Positions 5,742 through 60,881 are shown, counted from the stretch's first letter. The stretch is 64,000 nucleotides of DNA from an uncultured Gammaproteobacteria bacterium (GCA_964596355.1 CAZQTD010000003.1:20500-84499); one strand, 5' to 3'. Translations and numbers: made by a program. Notes: generated from the sequence alone by a model not told the origin.

Positions 5742-5792
5742 GAACCTTTAAAGGTCCGACCCTGCAAGGTGTCTATAGGGTATAATGTGAGT

Positions 5793-6503
5793 ATGGCAGA
5801 TGAGGAAGTTCAAGATCTTCGACAAGAACTATCATTTCTGTATCGCGTCGTCCAGAGCGTACATAGCCTTGAACTTGCGGAGGTTCTTAAGCAAATTGTG
5901 GATGTTGCCTACACGGCAACGAAAGCAGATTCGGTACTTGTTTACATAGTAGATCCCAAAAAACAGCAACTAGTGTTGAGAGCGTCAAAGAATCCCCGCG
6001 AGAACTTGTTTCATAAAATAACCATGAAAATGGGAGAAGGAATTACCGGGTGGGTGGCGCGTGAAAAGAAGGCTGTGGCAATTTCAGCTGGGGCCAATAA
6101 GGATCCACGGTTTAAATTTTTCCGGAGTCTCCCCGAGGACACGTTTGAAGCGTTTTTATCCGTCCCGATTATCAATAAACGCGGCGTCGTGGGGGTCATC
6201 AACGTGCAGCACGAAAAACCGCATACACACACGCGAATGGAAGTTAACTTACTTACCGCAATTGGTAAATTGGTGGGCGGTGCGGTGGAAAACGCACTGC
6301 TCATTGAGGAAACGCTCGCACTGAAGGACGCGCTTATTCTGCGCAAACTTATCGAAAAGGCAAAGGGGATTTTGATGAAGCGTCGGGGGCTTACGGAAGA
6401 ACAAGCGTTTTCGATGCTGCAAAAGCAAAGCATGAATTCCGGCAAGTCAATGAAGGATATCGCTGACGCCGTTATCACCGTAGACGCACTGCAGCTTCGC
6501 TGA
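5793..6503 (+). CDS. GAF-domain sensor fused to a C-terminal ANTAR RNA-binding antiterminator domain
   Basis: The C-terminal LILRKLIEKAKGILMKRRGLTEEQAFSMLQKQSMNSGKSMKDIADAVI matches the ANTAR helix pattern. The N-terminal ~150 aa are GAF-like. A TATAAT hexamer (5781-5786) lies 6 nt before the ATG at 5793, so the mRNA is probably leaderless. The track start at 5769 is a GTG. Confidence 0.8.
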   Translation: MADEEVQDLRQELSFLYRVVQSVHSLELAEVLKQIVDVAYTATKADSVLVYIVDPKKQQLVLRASKNPRENLFHKITMKMGEGITGWVAREKKAVAISAGANKDPRFKFFRSLPEDTFEAFLSVPIINKRGVVGVINVQHEKPHTHTRMEVNLLTAIGKLVGGAVENALLIEETLALKDALILRKLIEKAKGILMKRRGLTEEQAFSMLQKQSMNSGKSMKDIADAVITVDALQLR

Positions 6504-6506
6504 TAC

Positions 6507-6540
6507 TATTCTCATATATTAATATATGAGAATAATTTTG
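6507..6540 (+). terminator. AT-rich 28-bp perfect palindrome TATTCTCATATATT|AATATATGAGAATA followed by ATTTTG; possible intrinsic terminator of the GAF-ANTAR gene or an operator upstream of the glnA promoter
   Basis: Seen directly, 4 nt after the stop at 6503. Confidence 0.4.
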
Positions 6541-6544
6541 GGTA

Positions 6545-6574
6545 TTGACAAGTGACAGCGATGTTTTTTATTGT
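6545..6574 (+). promoter_or_regulatory. Sigma70-like promoter TTGACA-18-TATTGT for the glnA leader
   Basis: Hexamer match and spacing. Predicted transcription start near 6581. Confidence 0.4.
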
Positions 6575-6784: not shown

Positions 6785-8131
6785 ATGGCGAAAGATGACG
6801 TCAAAGAAGTGCTTGCACGTGTAAAAAACGATAACGTCACGTTTGTTGATTTGCAGTTTAATGATTTCCTTGGCAATGTAAAAAGTTCAACGATTCCTGC
6901 CTATAATTTGGAAGACGCCCTGACGCACGGCGTATGGATTGACGGGTCGTCCATAGAAGGATTTGCACGCATTCATGAGTCGGACATGTATCTTATGCCG
7001 GATCCAGCCACTTACTCCCTTCTTCCATGGCGAAACAATATAGAAACAGGTAGGGTAGCGCGGCTTATCTGTGACGTGTATACTCCTAATCACGAACCAT
7101 TTGAGGGCGATCCGCGCGTGATTTTGAAGCGGACGCTTCGTGAGGCAAACGCATTGGGGTACGAGTATTATACCGGCCCAGAATGCGAATTTTTTCTGTT
7201 TCCGAAGGATCACGAAGGAAACATCCGGCGCGAGACCCGCGGCAACGGGTATTACTTCACGCTCATTATGGATGAGTCCTATACAGTCAAGCGCTCTATT
7301 ATGGAAGCGCTGGATGCCATGGGTATTGGTACGGAAACGAGCACGCATGAGGTAGCAGATAATCAGCATGAGATTGATATACGGTATGACCAAGCGCTGA
7401 AAACCGCAGACAACACGGCGACGCTTATCACTGCAGTTAAATTTATCGCTTACAAATACAATTATCATGCGACGTTCATGGCAAAGCCGTTTTTTGGCGT
7501 CAACGGCAGCGGGATGCATACACATCAAAGTCTGTGGAAGGGAGAAAAAAATGCGTTTTACGATTGCAAAGATAAATATGGACTTTCTCGTGTAGCCTAT
7601 CACTTTTTGGCAGGGCAACTTGCCTATGCGCGTGAAATTGCAGGCGTATTTGCGCCGACGGTCAATTCCTACAAACGCGTAACTCCCGGCTATGAAGCGC
7701 CTGCGTATGTCTGCTGGGCGCGGATAAACCGCTCTGCCCTCATACGGGTGCCGAAGGTATCCAAGGGGCTTGAGGATAAAGGAACGAGGCTTGAAATTCG
7801 TTGTCCGGATCCGTCGGGGAGTCCCTATCTGTTGTTTGCAGTGCTTCTCAAAGCAGGACTTGAGGGGATAAAAAAGAATATGAAAGCGCCCGATCCGGTT
7901 GAGGAGAATTTGTTTGAGTTTGATGACGCGAAGTTGTCCACATACTACATTACCAAATTGCCGGGAAGTTTGGGCGACGCTATTGATGAGATGAACAATG
8001 GTAGCGTTGTACGCGAAACGTTTGGTGATTATTCGTTCCATCGATATATCGAAGCCAAAACCGAGGAATGGGACAGCTTCCGACGGTGGGTAACAGATTG
8101 GGAGATTGAGCGGTACCTCACGACCATCTAG
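6785..8131 (+). CDS. glnA: Glutamine synthetase, type I
   Basis: N-terminus and catalytic-region motifs are typical of GSI. Length 448 aa. SD AAGAGAGGA. Confidence 0.9.
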   Translation: MAKDDVKEVLARVKNDNVTFVDLQFNDFLGNVKSSTIPAYNLEDALTHGVWIDGSSIEGFARIHESDMYLMPDPATYSLLPWRNNIETGRVARLICDVYTPNHEPFEGDPRVILKRTLREANALGYEYYTGPECEFFLFPKDHEGNIRRETRGNGYYFTLIMDESYTVKRSIMEALDAMGIGTETSTHEVADNQHEIDIRYDQALKTADNTATLITAVKFIAYKYNYHATFMAKPFFGVNGSGMHTHQSLWKGEKNAFYDCKDKYGLSRVAYHFLAGQLAYAREIAGVFAPTVNSYKRVTPGYEAPAYVCWARINRSALIRVPKVSKGLEDKGTRLEIRCPDPSGSPYLLFAVLLKAGLEGIKKNMKAPDPVEENLFEFDDAKLSTYYITKLPGSLGDAIDEMNNGSVVRETFGDYSFHRYIEAKTEEWDSFRRWVTDWEIERYLTTI

Positions 8132-11255: not shown

Positions 11256-11274
11256 ACAAGATAACGGTCTTGTT
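11255..11274 (+). terminator. Weak hairpin GACAAGA-TAACGG-TCTTGTT overlapping the gatB stop
   Basis: Seen directly. The U-tract is poor. Confidence 0.25.
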
Positions 11275-11297
11275 ACTATGATTTAAAACATAGTAAC
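11272..11297. promoter_or_regulatory. 26-bp palindrome GTTACTATGATTTAAAACATAGTAAC (one mismatch to perfect), 10 nt upstream of the dnaE ATG; candidate operator
   Basis: Near-identical perfect palindrome copy at 46402-46427 upstream of tdk. Confidence 0.5.
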
Positions 11298-45777: not shown

Positions 45778-46362
45778 TTACTTGGCCCAGCAGTTCCTGC
45801 ACCGCGCCTCGTACGCGTCGGTGCGGCCCACGAGCTCGGGATCGGCTTCAAGTGGGTTAATGCGTGCCGTACTGTTGGTAATACGCTTATGGAAGAGAGC
45901 CTCTTCTCCGCACAGTGTGCAAATTGCAGAAAGCTTGGTGGCTTTATCAGCCAAGGCCAAAAGCGCAGGGACAGGTACAAACGGTTGCCGATCGTATGTC
46001 ATGGCTAATCCCGACACAATCACGTGTTTTCCCGCATCCACAAGTTTCATAACCGCGGAAACAAGCTCCTTGCCAAACCACTGCGCTTCATCTATGGCAA
46101 CGACTTCGGTATCCGGTCGCACACGCGCAAGTATTTGCTTTGCGCTTCGTACAAGTTCTGATTCAAAGCTTATGCCGGCATGGGAAAATATCTTGCGGTC
46201 TTTGCCATAGCGCGTATCGATGGCATGCTTAAAGACTTGTACCCGCTTCTTTGCGATCGTGGCGCGTTTGACTTGACGGATGAGCTCTTCAGTTTTACCG
46301 CAGTACATAGGGCCGGCGATGACTTCCAAATATCCGCGGTTCCGTTTCACAGTTTGCTTCAT
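45778..46362 (-). CDS. tdk: Thymidine kinase
   Basis: P-loop GPMYCGKTEEL and C-terminal zinc ribbon CTLCG...CRNC. Start set at the ATG (MKQTVK). The track start at 46398 is a GTG. Confidence 0.85.
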   Translation of the reverse strand: MKQTVKRNRGYLEVIAGPMYCGKTEELIRQVKRATIAKKRVQVFKHAIDTRYGKDRKIFSHAGISFESELVRSAKQILARVRPDTEVVAIDEAQWFGKELVSAVMKLVDAGKHVIVSGLAMTYDRQPFVPVPALLALADKATKLSAICTLCGEEALFHKRITNSTARINPLEADPELVGRTDAYEARCRNCWAK

Positions 46363-46401
46363 AGCTTTAAGTATATACCGACGACAGTCTGTGTGCACGA
46401 T

Positions 46402-46427
46402 GTTACTATGTTTTAAAACATAGTAAC
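46402..46427. promoter_or_regulatory. Perfect 26-bp palindrome GTTACTATGTTTTAAAACATAGTAAC upstream of tdk; second copy of the dnaE-upstream element
   Basis: Seen directly. Reverse complement is identical. Confidence 0.5.
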
Positions 46428-46466
46428 AGGGGTGATTTTGATATTGTTCGTATTATTTTCGTTATA

Positions 46467-46495
46467 TTGACACTTTTATTCGGGTTTTTTACGAT
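46467..46495 (+). promoter_or_regulatory. Promoter TTGACA-17-TACGAT, 8 nt upstream of the ATG at 46504 (leaderless-type)
   Basis: Hexamers and spacing. Confidence 0.4.
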
Positions 46496-46503
46496 AACTT
46501 CGT

Positions 46504-46758
46504 ATGCCGGAAGTTATTGATGAATCCATTTCCGTTGATCTTCTTAGCAACCACATGAAAGGCACAGCGTACCCGTGGATCATCCATTGGCGGGGGAATC
46601 GGTACATGATAACCAACGTCGGCCTCCATTACACGACGCGTGAAGGTAGGACGCTGATTCACATATTCTCCGTCACCGATGGCAACACGTTCTTTAAGCT
46701 CCGGTTTAATACCGAGAATCTGGGGTGGAAATTGCTGGAAATAGACACAATAAATTAA
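46504..46758 (+). CDS. Hypothetical 84-aa protein upstream of dinB (strand uncertain; an overlapping 97-aa ORF exists on the minus strand at 46489-46782)
   Basis: The plus-strand ORF has a consensus promoter and a more protein-like composition. No motif recognised. Confidence 0.35.
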   Translation: MPEVIDESISVDLLSNHMKGTAYPWIIHWRGNRYMITNVGLHYTTREGRTLIHIFSVTDGNTFFKLRFNTENLGWKLLEIDTIN

Positions 46759-46837
46759 CCCAATTGATCTAATTGACCACATGTTTAAGCAAATTCCAAT
46801 TTCCCAATGTAAGTATTGGCGCTTATTTTAGAATAAT

Positions 46838-48163
46838 ATGGATTTTGCCTCCGAGTTTCCCACCATCATGCACATAGATCTCAATTCGTGCTTTGCCACG
46901 ATTGAACAGCAGGCAAATCCGCTTCTGCGGGGCAAACCTGTGGCTGTAGCGGCATACACGACGAGCCGCGGGTGTATTCTAGCCGCGTCAACGGAAGCCA
47001 AGCGTTTGGGAGTCAAAACCGGCATGCGGGTAATCGACGGCAGGACGCTTGTACCGCGCCTAGTTGTCCTTCCGCCGGATCCGGAGAAATACCGATGGGT
47101 GAATCAAAAACTTCAGATCCTGCTTGGCTCCTATACGCCATATTGTTCGATTGAATCGATTGATGAAATCGTGATGGATGTCAAAATACACCGTCTCATT
47201 GCGCCATTGCTTCATGGTCAAAATAACCATGAAACCATGGAACCATGGAAGAATAATTTCTTGAATAATAGACGCATCATTGATGCCATGACGCGAATCG
47301 CTCAAGAGATTAAGAAGCGGATAAAAGCAGAGATTGGCGAGTGGTTGACTGTCTCCATTGGTATTGCGCCCAACCGGTATCTGGCGAAAGTTGCCTCTGG
47401 CCTCCATAAACCGGATGGGCTGGACGTCATTACCAAAGAAACGATCACGCCGGTTTTTGAACGTTTGACTCTTGAGGATCTCTGCGGCATCAAGCAGGGG
47501 ATAGCCAATCGCCTGCGCGCAAGCGGCATTACGACGCCGGTTGCGATGCTTGCCGCTCCTGCGCAGACACTTGTGCGGGCGCTTAACTCCATAACCGGTT
47601 ACCACTGGTGGCGTCGGCTTCATGGGTACGAAGACGGCGTGGTGTATAAGAAGTTAGACAAAGAGAAAGAGGTCCGGCAAAAGACATTTGGTCAATCGTT
47701 TGCCCTTGGAATAGCGCATATGCCGACACAAGCCGCGACACTGCAAATTCTTTCTCAACTCGTTGCCAAAATGGGAAGACGGCTTCGCAGAAATGGCTTT
47801 ACCGCCCGCGGCGTAGGAGTATCGCTCCTTTTTACCGACGGGAGCCACTGGCATGAGCAAAAAATGGTGCATGGCCATCTTTTTGCCGATGGCGACTTTT
47901 ACTGTCTCGCCGGTGAAATGCTTGCTCACGCCCCAGCGCGTTTGATACGGACGTTAGCGATAACAACCTATAAACTGACGCATGATCTGTATGCGCAGGA
48001 AAGCCTGCTTGCTGAAGAGCAGAGGAAACGGCGCATCACCCAGACTCTTGATGCAGTCCATGATCGCTTTGGCGAGCGAATTGTGATCACCGGCAGAATG
48101 CTTCGGATGGAGCAAAGGGTAGTAGATAGAATTGCCTTTGGCAGGGCAAGGGAACTGGTGTAG
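46838..48163 (+). CDS. dinB: DNA polymerase IV (Y-family translesion polymerase)
   Basis: N-terminus IMHIDLNSCFATIEQQANPLLRGKPVAV and the catalytic-core pattern. Confidence 0.85.
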   Translation: MDFASEFPTIMHIDLNSCFATIEQQANPLLRGKPVAVAAYTTSRGCILAASTEAKRLGVKTGMRVIDGRTLVPRLVVLPPDPEKYRWVNQKLQILLGSYTPYCSIESIDEIVMDVKIHRLIAPLLHGQNNHETMEPWKNNFLNNRRIIDAMTRIAQEIKKRIKAEIGEWLTVSIGIAPNRYLAKVASGLHKPDGLDVITKETITPVFERLTLEDLCGIKQGIANRLRASGITTPVAMLAAPAQTLVRALNSITGYHWWRRLHGYEDGVVYKKLDKEKEVRQKTFGQSFALGIAHMPTQAATLQILSQLVAKMGRRLRRNGFTARGVGVSLLFTDGSHWHEQKMVHGHLFADGDFYCLAGEMLAHAPARLIRTLAITTYKLTHDLYAQESLLAEEQRKRRITQTLDAVHDRFGERIVITGRMLRMEQRVVDRIAFGRARELV

Positions 48164-48175
48164 AATGCGCGTGAT

Positions 48176-49387
48176 ATGACTGACTACCGGCCGCTTGCTG
48201 ACATCCTTAGACCCCAAACGCTGGATGACGTCATAGGGCAGAAGCATCTCGTGGGGAAGAACGGCATAATACGCAGAGTGCTGGCGTCGGGCTTTCTCCC
48301 CTCGATGATTTTCTGGGGTCCTCCCGGCTGCGGAAAAACCACGCTTGCGCATGTGTTAGCCTCTTCAACAGTTGCACATTTTGAGGCGCATTCTGCCGTC
48401 ACGGCGTCTCTGACCGATGTGCGCCGCGTGGTGAAACAGGCCGCTGAACGGCGTAAAACCGGCAAACAAACCGTGTTGTTCATAGATGAAATTCACCGGT
48501 TTAATAAGGCGCAGCAGGACGCGCTTCTACCGCATGTGGAAAAGGGAACCGTGATTTTTATAGGCGCAACCACGGAAAATCCATCGTTTGAGGTCGTTTC
48601 GCCGCTTTTGTCGCGGGTACGCGTATTGGTTCTCAATCCGCTTGACGATCAAGAACTCAATGCTGTTATCGACCGCGGCCTCGCGTATCTTAAGAGAACG
48701 CTTGATATTGAAGCCAGGAAGTTTTTGCTTAGCGCGGCAAACGGCGACGCAAGAAGCGCACTTACTATTCTTGAAATTGCGGCACAATTTAAATCGAGCC
48801 AGATGTCGAAAACAAAAGCGCGTAATCCAAACGCCATATCCGTTCAAGACATTGAAGAAGCTGCGCAGCGAAAAATGCTTCAGTATGATCGTGGCGGAGA
48901 AGAGCATTACAACACAATGAGCGCGTTTATTAAATCCATGCGCGCGGGCGATGTGGACGCGGCGCTTTATTATTTAGCTCGCATGGTAGATGCCGGGGAA
49001 GATCCGCTGTTTATCGCTCGACGAATGGTGGTGTTTGCGTCGGAAGACATTGGGGTTGCTCAACCCACAGCTCTCGTTGTTGCCAACGCGGTATTTGACG
49101 CGTGCCACACAATCGGCTACCCGGAGTGTCAGGAAAATCTTGCGCACGGCGTGGTTTATCTTTGTCTTGCAAAAAAAGATCGGAGTGCCTACGATGCCTA
49201 TATACAAGCTCTTGGTGATGTTAAAAAATACGGAAACCTTCCGATTCCGCTTGTCATCAGAAATGCGCCGACCAAGCTCATGAAGGAGCTACACTACGGC
49301 AAAGGATACAATTACTACCCTATAGAAAGTCTGTTACCTGATAAAATAAAGGGAAAGACGTACTATAAAAGGAGTCAACTCGCGTGA
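48176..49387 (+). CDS. rarA: Replication-associated recombination protein A (AAA+ ATPase RarA/MgsA)
   Basis: Walker A WGPPGCGKTTLAH, Walker B FIDEIHRF, C-terminal MgsA helical domain. Confidence 0.85.
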   Translation: MTDYRPLADILRPQTLDDVIGQKHLVGKNGIIRRVLASGFLPSMIFWGPPGCGKTTLAHVLASSTVAHFEAHSAVTASLTDVRRVVKQAAERRKTGKQTVLFIDEIHRFNKAQQDALLPHVEKGTVIFIGATTENPSFEVVSPLLSRVRVLVLNPLDDQELNAVIDRGLAYLKRTLDIEARKFLLSAANGDARSALTILEIAAQFKSSQMSKTKARNPNAISVQDIEEAAQRKMLQYDRGGEEHYNTMSAFIKSMRAGDVDAALYYLARMVDAGEDPLFIARRMVVFASEDIGVAQPTALVVANAVFDACHTIGYPECQENLAHGVVYLCLAKKDRSAYDAYIQALGDVKKYGNLPIPLVIRNAPTKLMKELHYGKGYNYYPIESLLPDKIKGKTYYKRSQLA

Positions 49388-60120: not shown

Positions 60121-60744
60121 TTATACAAATTTTCGGATGAGTCCAACGACTTTTCCCTGAATTTTGACGTGCGTGGTAAATATTGGCGACATCGTTGCGT
60201 TGGCAGGGGCGAGTTTAATTCGTTGCTTTTCAAAATAAATGCGCTTAAGCGTGGCAAGTCCGTTTGGCAAAAGCGCAACGACGATATCGCCGTTTTGCGC
60301 GTCTGTTTGATGTTGTACCACGACATAATCTCCATCCAAAATACCGTCCTCAACCATGGATTGACCTTTGACTTGCAACACGTAGCTGGGTTTATTTCCG
60401 GCAATCATGCCCGGAGCAACGGAAATGTAGAAATTCGGATCAGTGTACGGTTCAAGCGGCGCGCCGGCGGCAATGAAGCCCAGGACAGGAAGCTCAACTG
60501 CCGTCGTCCCTGCTCCAGATTTATATTTATCCTCGACGACCTCCAGCCCTCGCGCAGTGCCGTCAAGTTTTTTAATGAATCCTTTTTCCCGAAGTCGCGC
60601 AATGTGCTCATGAACCGTCGCGGCGGAATTCATGCCAAGCGCATCGCCAATTTCCTTAAGCGTCGGCGCATAGCCGAATCGCTGGATAAATTGCGTAATA
60701 AATTCAATGATCTGTCGTTCTTTGGTATACAGTGTGGGCGGCAT
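60121..60744 (-). CDS. lexA: LexA repressor (S24 peptidase)
   Basis: N-terminal wHTH then catalytic GQSM...K dyad region (VKGQSMVEDGILDGDYVVV...LKR). Confidence 0.85.
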   Translation of the reverse strand: MPPTLYTKERQIIEFITQFIQRFGYAPTLKEIGDALGMNSAATVHEHIARLREKGFIKKLDGTARGLEVVEDKYKSGAGTTAVELPVLGFIAAGAPLEPYTDPNFYISVAPGMIAGNKPSYVLQVKGQSMVEDGILDGDYVVVQHQTDAQNGDIVVALLPNGLATLKRIYFEKQRIKLAPANATMSPIFTTHVKIQGKVVGLIRKFV

Positions 60745-60808: not shown

Positions 60809-60838
60809 GAATATGTGATATGATCATATTGAGTATTC
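60809..60838. promoter_or_regulatory. Dyad-symmetric element GAATAT-gtg-ATATGATCATAT-tga-GTATTC in the lexA/uvrB divergent region; candidate SOS operator
   Basis: 12-bp perfect palindromic core (60818-60829) flanked by matching outer arms. Confidence 0.4.
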
Positions 60839-60853
60839 CAAATAAAAACCGAA

Positions 60854-60881
60854 TTGTCAATACATCGAAACACGGTATAAA
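60854..60881 (+). promoter_or_regulatory. uvrB promoter TTGTCA-16-TATAAA
   Basis: Hexamers and spacing. Confidence 0.4.

Follow-up and report, generated by a model that had tools for sequence, protein, structure and literature searches.

Introduction

The characterised members of the TrpR family, TrpR and HisR, are ligand-dependent repressors, and TrpR of Escherichia coli represses the trp promoter from a site that overlaps the -10 element. To our knowledge, the control of transcription in Patescibacteria (CPR bacteria), with their tiny genomes and few regulators, is almost unexplored, and our search of the literature found no paper on a TrpR-like regulator, or on a palindrome of the kind described here, in CPR bacteria. 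TrpR and HisR both bind 20-bp palindromes and autoregulate (PMC9413887). The operator consensus of E. coli TrpR is TGTAcTnGTnnACnAgTACA, and Arg69 of this protein is a DNA contact (PMC9413887).

Here, we analysed a perfect 26-bp palindrome, GTTACTATGTTTTAAAACATAGTAAC, at positions 46402–46427 of a 64-kb stretch of DNA (hereafter the window, meaning the whole 64,000 nucleotides). Based on its sequence and on its recurrence beside Trp_repressor-family genes elsewhere, we propose that this element, which has no strand, is probably the operator of a TrpR/YerC-like regulator. The proposed system resembles that of TrpR in the protein family and fold of its regulator, in a dyad-symmetric operator that would lie over the -10, and in a regulator gene that is predicted to be autoregulated. 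Moreover, the arms of the Gottesmanbacteria-type sites (GTTACTATG and CATAGTAAC) resemble GTACTAG and CTAGTAC of TrpR, and two Treponema metagenome-assembled genomes (MAGs) carry the same arms before a TrpB-like gene, with a TrpR gene nearby in one of them. However, the site is 26–28 bp rather than 18–20 bp long, its ACT/AGT triplets are separated by 6 bp more, the protein ends in an additional helix of about 45 aa and falls far short of the TrpR equivalog cut-off, tryptophan genes are absent from its neighbours, and two putative operators bracket the regulator gene.

HisR (YerC) of Firmicutes and other bacteria is the closest relative in both sequence and structure (TIGR02531; 3G1C, 3KOR and 3FRW). 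Its operators are likewise palindromic with a lineage-specific consensus, and autoregulation is frequent (PMC9413887); in addition, a common CPR variant of the site studied here, GCTTTA...TAAAGC, recalls the HisR arms cacTTTA-N6-TAAAgtg. In contrast to HisR, most members of the present family fall below the YerC/YecD cut-off (31–35 vs. 42.2 bits, with one at 43.4), the arms are spaced by 14 nt instead of 6 nt, the sites have no histidine genes beside them, and the C-terminal extension and two-sided bracketing found here are not described for HisR. What is new, as far as sequence can tell, is a predicted operator of the TrpR/HisR type with a longer site, a C-terminally extended protein, a bracketed regulator gene and neighbours outside amino acid metabolism.

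Results

A 28-bp palindrome with one near-identical twin in the window

Direct comparison of the 26-mer at 46402–46427 with its reverse complement bore out the perfect symmetry claimed in the preliminary description of this DNA, and the symmetry reached one base beyond on either side (T46401 and A46428), giving a palindrome of 28 bp at 46401–46428. Its conserved core, ATGTTTTAAAACAT, occupies 46408–46421. The sole further match in the window at up to 3 mismatches was found at 11272–11297 and differed at one position (T10 to A; 25/26 identical), so that the element is indeed the twin of a dnaE-proximal palindrome, as had been noted. No other window position lay within 7 mismatches of the 26-mer, the next best having 8, and weaker copies in the 64 kb were at the level expected by chance (5 matches to the core motif with 2 mismatches found vs. 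5.0 expected). None of 100 dinucleotide shuffles of the window contained any match to the palindrome. When the window was shuffled 200 times by mononucleotide, the longest perfect palindrome was mostly 14–18 bp, reaching 26 bp in one shuffle and 28 bp in none. A perfect palindrome of such length is therefore rare, but not impossible by chance, and because length alone could have arisen in this way, the argument rests on the second copy and on recurrence in other genomes.

A second perfect 28-bp palindrome, TATTCTCATATATTAATATATGAGAATA, which is unrelated to the first, was found at window positions 6507–6534. It begins 3 nt past the stop codon of an ORF at 5769–6503, ends 11 nt upstream of a TTGACA (6546–6551) and precedes the long leader of a 448-aa ORF (6785–8131). 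In syntenic relatives, glutamine synthetase stands in place of this ORF, preceded in locus L119 by a GAF/ANTAR gene. No copy of TATTCTCATATATTAATATATGAGAATA was present in any fetched locus.

Position of the two copies relative to genes and promoters

The palindrome at 46402 lies between two candidate regulated transcription units. On the minus strand, tdk (45778–46362; Pfam TK, E 2e-46) encodes a thymidine kinase of 194 aa when read from the ATG at 46362, which we used here, vs. the GTG at 46398 chosen by gene callers; Tdk homologues are 187–197 aa long. On the plus strand, a divergent operon (46504–49387) comprises a conserved small ORF of 84 aa (46504–46758) with no Pfam or NCBIfam match, dinB (46838–48163; IMS family) and rarA/mgsA (48176–49387). 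The small ORF is a genuine conserved gene that comes first in the dinB-rarA operon of relatives, where it is 67–81% identical (L111, L112 and L114) and thus more conserved than DinB (54–56% identity).

The two best-scoring promoter-like sites of the tdk-dinB intergenic region were TGCACA-16-TATACT (46370–46397, minus strand), the -10 of which ends 7 nt before the tdk ATG, and TTGACA-17-TACGAT (46467–46495, plus strand; 10/12), which ends 8 nt before the ATG of the small ORF. In the orthologous locus L114, the tdk promoter is TTGACA...TACAAT, again 8 nt before the ATG. Since the -10 lies just 7–8 nt before the start codon in all of these, the mRNAs of tdk and the small ORF may be leaderless. 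Relative to these landmarks, the palindrome was placed much as the preliminary description had it: its centre (46414.5) was computed to be 52.5 nt upstream of the tdk ATG, close to the earlier figure of about 55 nt, and its near end is 4 nt upstream of TGCACA-16-TATACT, in agreement with a location just upstream of the tdk -35/-10. On the other side, the palindrome ends 39 nt upstream of the -35 of the dinB-operon promoter, and its position between the two units would allow an effect on both directions, as had also been suggested.

The 46402 copy thus sits upstream of both best-scoring promoters and is overlapped by embedded TGTTACTAT strings alone, which are weak. One of these, in the left arm (46401–46409, plus strand), looks like an extended -10 (TGnTAnnnT) from its sequence and by analogy with the copies upstream of the regulator; an ACGACA (46381–46386) lies 17 nt upstream of it, and it is a weak candidate for a rightward promoter of the small ORF-dinB-rarA operon. 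The mirror string (46420–46428, minus strand) is extended -10-like by sequence and includes the flanking T/A that is conserved in the family; it could, again weakly, act as a leftward extended -10 for tdk, and no -35-like hexamer was found at the proper distance from it. At the tdk/dinB copy, a bound protein might repress the embedded promoters, hinder or assist the adjacent ones, or influence one side alone; it is analogy with the rest of the family that would favour repression.

The twin palindrome, GTTACTATGATTTAAAACATAGTAAC (11272–11297, no strand), carries the single mismatch and lies in the 52-nt spacer between gatB and dnaE. A gap of 10 nt separates it from the dnaE ATG (11308), and the -10 of the promoter-like TAGACA-18-TATGAT before dnaE falls partly within it.

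The palindrome recurs in Patescibacteria-type genomes

We scanned the pattern GTTACTATG-N8-CATAGTAAC, with its centre left free, over 185,579 species represented by one genome each, for which we calculated a chance expectation of ~9 matches (18 fixed bases in 596 Gb; our own arithmetic). A total of 28 sites in 26 loci were recovered, with 2–3 exact-arm copies per genome. Of these sites, 18 were in Patescibacteria-type contigs (Gottesmanbacteria, Woesebacteria, Curtissbacteria, Paceibacterota and 'Patescibacteria group', together with a few MAG contigs that share these features and carry a gamma-proteobacterial label), and all 18 had the centre TTTYRAAA, that is TTTTAAAA, TTTCGAAA or a one- or two-base variant, though the pattern left these bases unconstrained. 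The remaining 10 were mostly Firmicutes hairpins with unrelated centres and were about as numerous as expected by chance. In four loci (L018, L021, L025 and L022), the palindrome directly abutted a gene for a protein of ~145 aa, and did so on both sides of the gene in L018 and L021. The gene of one such protein, HY950_02225 of Gottesmanbacteria, is flanked by a 26-mer identical to that at 46402–46427. A 'homologue' of this gene in L002 was rejected as a spurious N-terminal match to a GNAT-like ORF.

Two loci from Treponema MAGs (L006 7588–7613 and L016 307–332) carried GTTACTATGTAT-AG-ATACATAGTAAC, overlapping the -10 of TTGACA-17-TACTAT. The N-terminus encoded by the gene downstream of these sites matches TrpB-like PLP enzymes (E 1e-26), and in L006 a 107-aa TrpR-type gene, with TIGR01321 as its best model (55.8 bits), lies 450 bp off. 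The Treponema sites are probably a genuine TrpR operator in spirochaetes, and their arms before a TrpB-like gene, with a TrpR gene nearby, indicate that the same arm sequence occurs in a classical TrpR setting.

The adjacent gene encodes a TrpR/YerC-like protein

The ~145-aa product matched Pfam Trp_repressor above threshold (E 1e-12 to 1e-17; L018, L021, L025 and L022). Its closest NCBIfam model was YerC/YecD (TIGR02531), with scores of 31.5, 34.6 and 43.4 bits (cut-off 42.2), and the TrpR equivalog gave 19–28 bits (cut-off 67); the nearest PDB sequences were 3FRW and 3KOR, which are YerC-like structures. An AlphaFold model (pLDDT 83.6) matched TrpR-like structures alone, with 3G1C (TM 0.85), 3KOR and 3FRW at the top and 3G1C the best, and had an extra long C-terminal helix (~45 aa) that is absent from the matched structures. 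The protein consists of a helix-turn-helix (HTH) fold plus this C-terminal helix, with no nuclease or transposase domain. By these comparisons, the predicted regulators form a clade that is related to, but distinct from, the YerC/YecD (HisR) equivalog. The long YerC-like form was found in at least 172 clusters at 50% identity (E up to 1e-30).

Searching the 64-kb window by tblastn with three homologues as queries returned no TrpR-like gene. The evidence favours, as regulator of the window palindromes, a TrpR/YerC-like protein whose gene would lie in another part of the genome.

Most contigs with the TrpR-like gene were 1–6 kb, and assembly may stop at the repeated palindromes on either side of it. 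Two TrpR-like paralogues, A2875_03705 and A2875_04390, were found together on a Gottesmanbacteria contig of 66.8 kb.

The palindrome is linked to the TrpR-like gene and brackets it

An alignment of the TrpR-like proteins was used to find 307 relatives in metagenomes, from which 80 loci with 66 distinct proteins were fetched and examined for linkage to a 26-bp palindrome with an ATG...CAT core. The palindrome ended 2–24 nt before the start codon of the TrpR-like gene in 50 of 65 distinct homologues and began within about 120 nt after its stop codon in 44 of 62. It was present on at least one side of the gene in 53 of 61 cases and on both sides in 38 of 61. The other 416 kb of the same loci held just 7 palindrome candidates, the convincing ones being within about 1 kb of the gene. 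This recurrence beside TrpR-like genes supports the earlier prediction of a sequence-specific protein-binding element, and bracketing of the regulator gene by two palindromes would imply autoregulation.

Across lineages, the core ATGWTTYRAAWCAT was constant. The outer six bases varied by lineage and stayed self-complementary (GTTACT/AGTAAC, GCTACC/GGTAGC, GCTTTA/TAAAGC, ACTTCG/CGAAGT, ATACCA/TGGTAT and TTCTCA/TGAGAA). A flanking T...A was conserved in about 70–78% of family sites, which indicates that the unit is really 28 bp. Family sites were nearly always intergenic and near a start codon, and the genes beside them were mixed: dnaE, tdk, rdgB/Ham1 (twice), DHFR, topoisomerase IB, TatD, GreA, a kinase-like P-loop protein, RluA-type pseudouridine synthases, Clp_N, glycosyltransferases and LTD proteins. 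By simple inspection, nucleotide and DNA functions seemed frequent among these neighbours, and no histidine-metabolism gene was among them.

Promoter overlap, duplex symmetry and covariation with the protein

Of the 49 copies upstream of the regulator, 14 had a TTGACA (at least 5/6; 11 perfect) 17–19 nt before palindrome position 3, compared to 3% of random positions at the same spacing, and a -35 was found at none of 44 copies downstream of the regulator gene. With this spacing, positions 3–8 (TAAAAT, TACTAT, TTTAAT and others) would serve as the -10, which would put the transcription start within the palindrome itself. One large clade has an upstream copy that breaks the symmetry (GCTTTA to ACTAAA) in the direction that improves the -10. 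The predicted overlap with the -10/start at the regulator's own gene, at dnaE and at the Treponema trpB-like genes is repressor geometry. We found no support for the activator site that had been suggested for the 46402 palindrome: nothing pointed to an activator, and the best-resolved copies overlap the -10/start in the manner of a repressor.

Among 140 family sites, the pair at positions 12/15 was Watson-Crick in 137 and the pair at 13/14 in 121, and the centre variants TTAA, TCGA, CTAG, ATAT and ACGT are self-complementary. Mismatched pairs comprised 32 G-T, 40 C-A and 98 others, with no excess of G-T. A centre that is unable to pair in a hairpin and is nonetheless self-complementary points to a two-fold symmetric protein on duplex DNA and not to an RNA loop.

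The HTH residue preceding a conserved Arg, which we aligned by eye with Gln68-Arg69 of E. coli TrpR (first HTH helix), was Gln where the operator had T10 (10–11 cases) and Tyr where it had A10 (35–37 cases), so that about 46 of 49 regulator-site pairs fitted this rule and 2–3 were exceptions. The Gln/Tyr split largely follows phylogeny, and the covariation is therefore supportive and not decisive.

Shuffling raised the arm mismatches of sites picked by their core alone from 1.32 to 3.22. For sites within one locus, left arms had 1.85 mismatches to their own right arm and 2.82 to that of the neighbour (39 vs. 16 pairs). The symmetry of the arms within a site would thus exceed what a dimer needs, and either template-switch correction or birth as perfect copies would explain it.

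The sites are not conserved at orthologous loci of relatives

Relatives with a Tdk 72–77% identical to that in the window keep the arrangement of tdk divergent from small ORF-dinB-rarA; L111 has a glycosyltransferase gene ahead of tdk. Between tdk and the dinB operon, L111 and L114–116 have no palindrome, and that of L112 has decayed to GCTATCATGTAACGGAACATAGTAGC. Likewise, no site precedes the dnaE orthologues of L118–L120 (78–81% identical), nor does one occur elsewhere in the roughly 20 kb of each locus. The two window 26-mers, being 25/26 identical, are far richer in information than a genome of 1 Mb requires. Elsewhere in L111 (2498–3154), a Y1_Tnp (IS200/IS605-type) transposase gene is inserted in an otherwise syntenic block of glycolysis genes.

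A conserved direct-repeat block near the dinB-operon promoter

An 11-bp tandem direct repeat, TTCGTATTATT followed by TTCGTTATATT, lies at 46447–46472 and continues into the TTGACA that forms the -35 of the promoter for small-ORF-dinB-rarA. Unlike the palindrome, the block CGAAAATAATACGAA-ATAGATCA was conserved in L111, L112 and L114–116. The lexA promoter (about 60835–60865, minus strand; TTGACA-17-AATACT) contains the similar TTCGATGTATTGACA, and ATTCGG(G)TTTTT, within its spacer, is likewise shared. We regard the direct-repeat block at 46447–46472 as a candidate LexA operator. Directly downstream of the -10-like AATACT of lexA is a perfect 12-bp palindrome, ATATGATCATAT (60818–60829), followed by CACATAT, which may take part in lexA autoregulation.

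Discussion

We consider it likely, with a probability of roughly two in three, that the palindrome at 46402–46427 is the operator of an autoregulated TrpR-family, YerC/YecD-like repressor that acts on tdk/small-ORF-dinB-rarA and dnaE. The dyad-symmetric site would be bound by a homodimeric (possibly higher-order) factor of ~145 aa, of a kind typical of Microgenomates-type Patescibacteria, which would bracket its own gene with two copies of the palindrome and so control its own expression. A few further copies would serve the 5' regions of other genes, here the tdk/small-ORF-dinB-rarA region and dnaE. If TrpR and HisR are a guide, binding probably requires a small-molecule co-repressor. The bound factor would occlude a -10/start region inside or abutting the palindrome, whereby the genes would be repressed, and copies downstream of the regulator gene might provide a second operator for looping or a roadblock before the next gene. 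The sequences show the element and its family, the physical link to the regulator gene, promoter overlap at many copies and covariation between protein and site, and from these we infer binding, repression at the 46402 copy, the presence of the regulator in the source genome and its ligand. Several observations count against the operator reading: the sites are not conserved at orthologous loci, the 46402 copy is upstream of both promoters, the window has no TrpR-like gene, the arms are more symmetric within a site than a dimer needs, the two window copies hold an excess of information, copies downstream of the regulator gene lack a -35, the neighbouring genes are functionally mixed, and 26–28 bp is longer than the 18–20 bp of known TrpR/HisR operators.

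Some features of the family recall REP elements and their RAYT genes, including the short palindrome flanking a gene on both sides, the solo intergenic copies and the lineage-specific variants. The palindrome could on this logic be a dispersed copy-paste module tied to the TrpR-like gene, with a duplicative or hairpin-templated process placing solo copies in intergenic DNA and with regulation as a by-product or later co-option, which would be compatible with operator function. Several results fit such a module: the TrpR-like gene has the element on both sides, the copies in the window agree at 25 of 26 positions but are missing at orthologous loci of relatives, sites are more symmetric than their lineage consensus (arm mismatches of 1.85 vs. 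2.82), the neighbouring genes are heterogeneous, and the gene-bearing contigs are mostly short, as if assemblies break there. We nevertheless judge it unlikely. Copies are very few (two in 64 kb, 2–3 with exact arms per genome and almost none more than 1 kb from the gene in 416 kb), a handful per genome compared to tens to hundreds for REP; they sit in promoters; the protein has an HTH repressor fold rather than a Y1/HUH transposase and lacks nuclease and transposase domains; there are no target-site duplications and no shared flanks past 28–30 bp; and the promoter embedding and residue-base covariation point to regulatory use. Given two copies in 64 kb, few per genome and a gene of HTH repressor fold, we did not class the element with REP/RAYT. 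If the DNA palindrome were a mere template, the active element could instead be an RNA hairpin in 5' UTRs (and in the regulator's 3' UTR) that controls translation or mRNA stability. A transcript would fold into a stem of 11–13 bp (-10.9 kcal/mol, z = -5), sites lie 2–60 nt before start codons, the outer arms show compensatory changes, and the dnaE stem could extend over Shine-Dalgarno-like GAGA bases. This explanation is improbable, however, given that the unpairable centre is also self-complementary (13/14 in 121/140; 12/15 in 137/140), that mismatches show no G-T excess (32 G-T, 40 C-A and 98 other), and that a -10 in the left arm puts the start inside the palindrome, so that the mRNA would lack part of the hairpin. 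In addition, the palindrome had no Rfam match (in the window, three tRNAs alone reached the gathering score), and TrpR-family proteins bind duplex DNA.

The preliminary description put no name to a regulator. The gene neighbourhood is SOS-like, with dinB, rarA, dnaE and lexA-uvrB in the window, where a canonical LexA (LexA_DNA_bind plus Peptidase_S24) is encoded at 60121–60744, divergent from uvrB; a palindromic site before dinB-type and replication/repair genes is what a LexA operator would look like. However, the lexA-uvrB intergenic region, and with it the lexA promoter, has neither the palindrome nor a relative of it nor its core, the element is elsewhere linked to the TrpR-like gene and not to lexA or recA, and the separate conserved direct-repeat block by the dinB-operon promoter is a better candidate for a LexA site. 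A paper by the group behind the definition of the Patescibacteria SOS network counts this clade among those in which LexA recognises a direct repeat and not a palindrome (PMC7739468). With no related site at the lexA promoter and a direct repeat reported as the motif of the clade, we rejected an SOS box and hold a LexA operator to be very improbable. Least probable of all is that the palindrome is an intrinsic terminator of the upstream gene or has no function and arose by chance. The dnaE copy does lie just after gatB, and other copies just after the regulator gene, and one of 200 shuffles produced a 26-bp palindrome. Against this, the stem is AT-rich, a terminator scanner made no call, and all 26 positions are conserved across many genomes in linkage to one gene family; the terminator reading was rejected because neither side has a T-run.

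The pairing of a specific protein family with a specific site of 26–28 bp, if the prediction of a TrpR-family operator is right, would provide a testable regulator-operator pair in hard-to-culture organisms, in which variation of the site follows that of the protein and the promoters that hold copies include those of dnaE, tdk and a dinB operon. At the same time, the two-operator bracketing and the fast turnover of near-perfect sites raise the question of where sites come from. One speculative answer, to which we give little credence, is that the 28-bp palindrome is a portable promoter-plus-operator module, with TGnTAnnAT on each strand around the constant core, that is copied already perfect by a hairpin-templated process from the pair bracketing the TrpR-like gene. 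Were this true, targets would be gained and lost by the insertion and decay of ready-made sites and not by point mutation, which would be a new way of rewiring regulons in minimal genomes.
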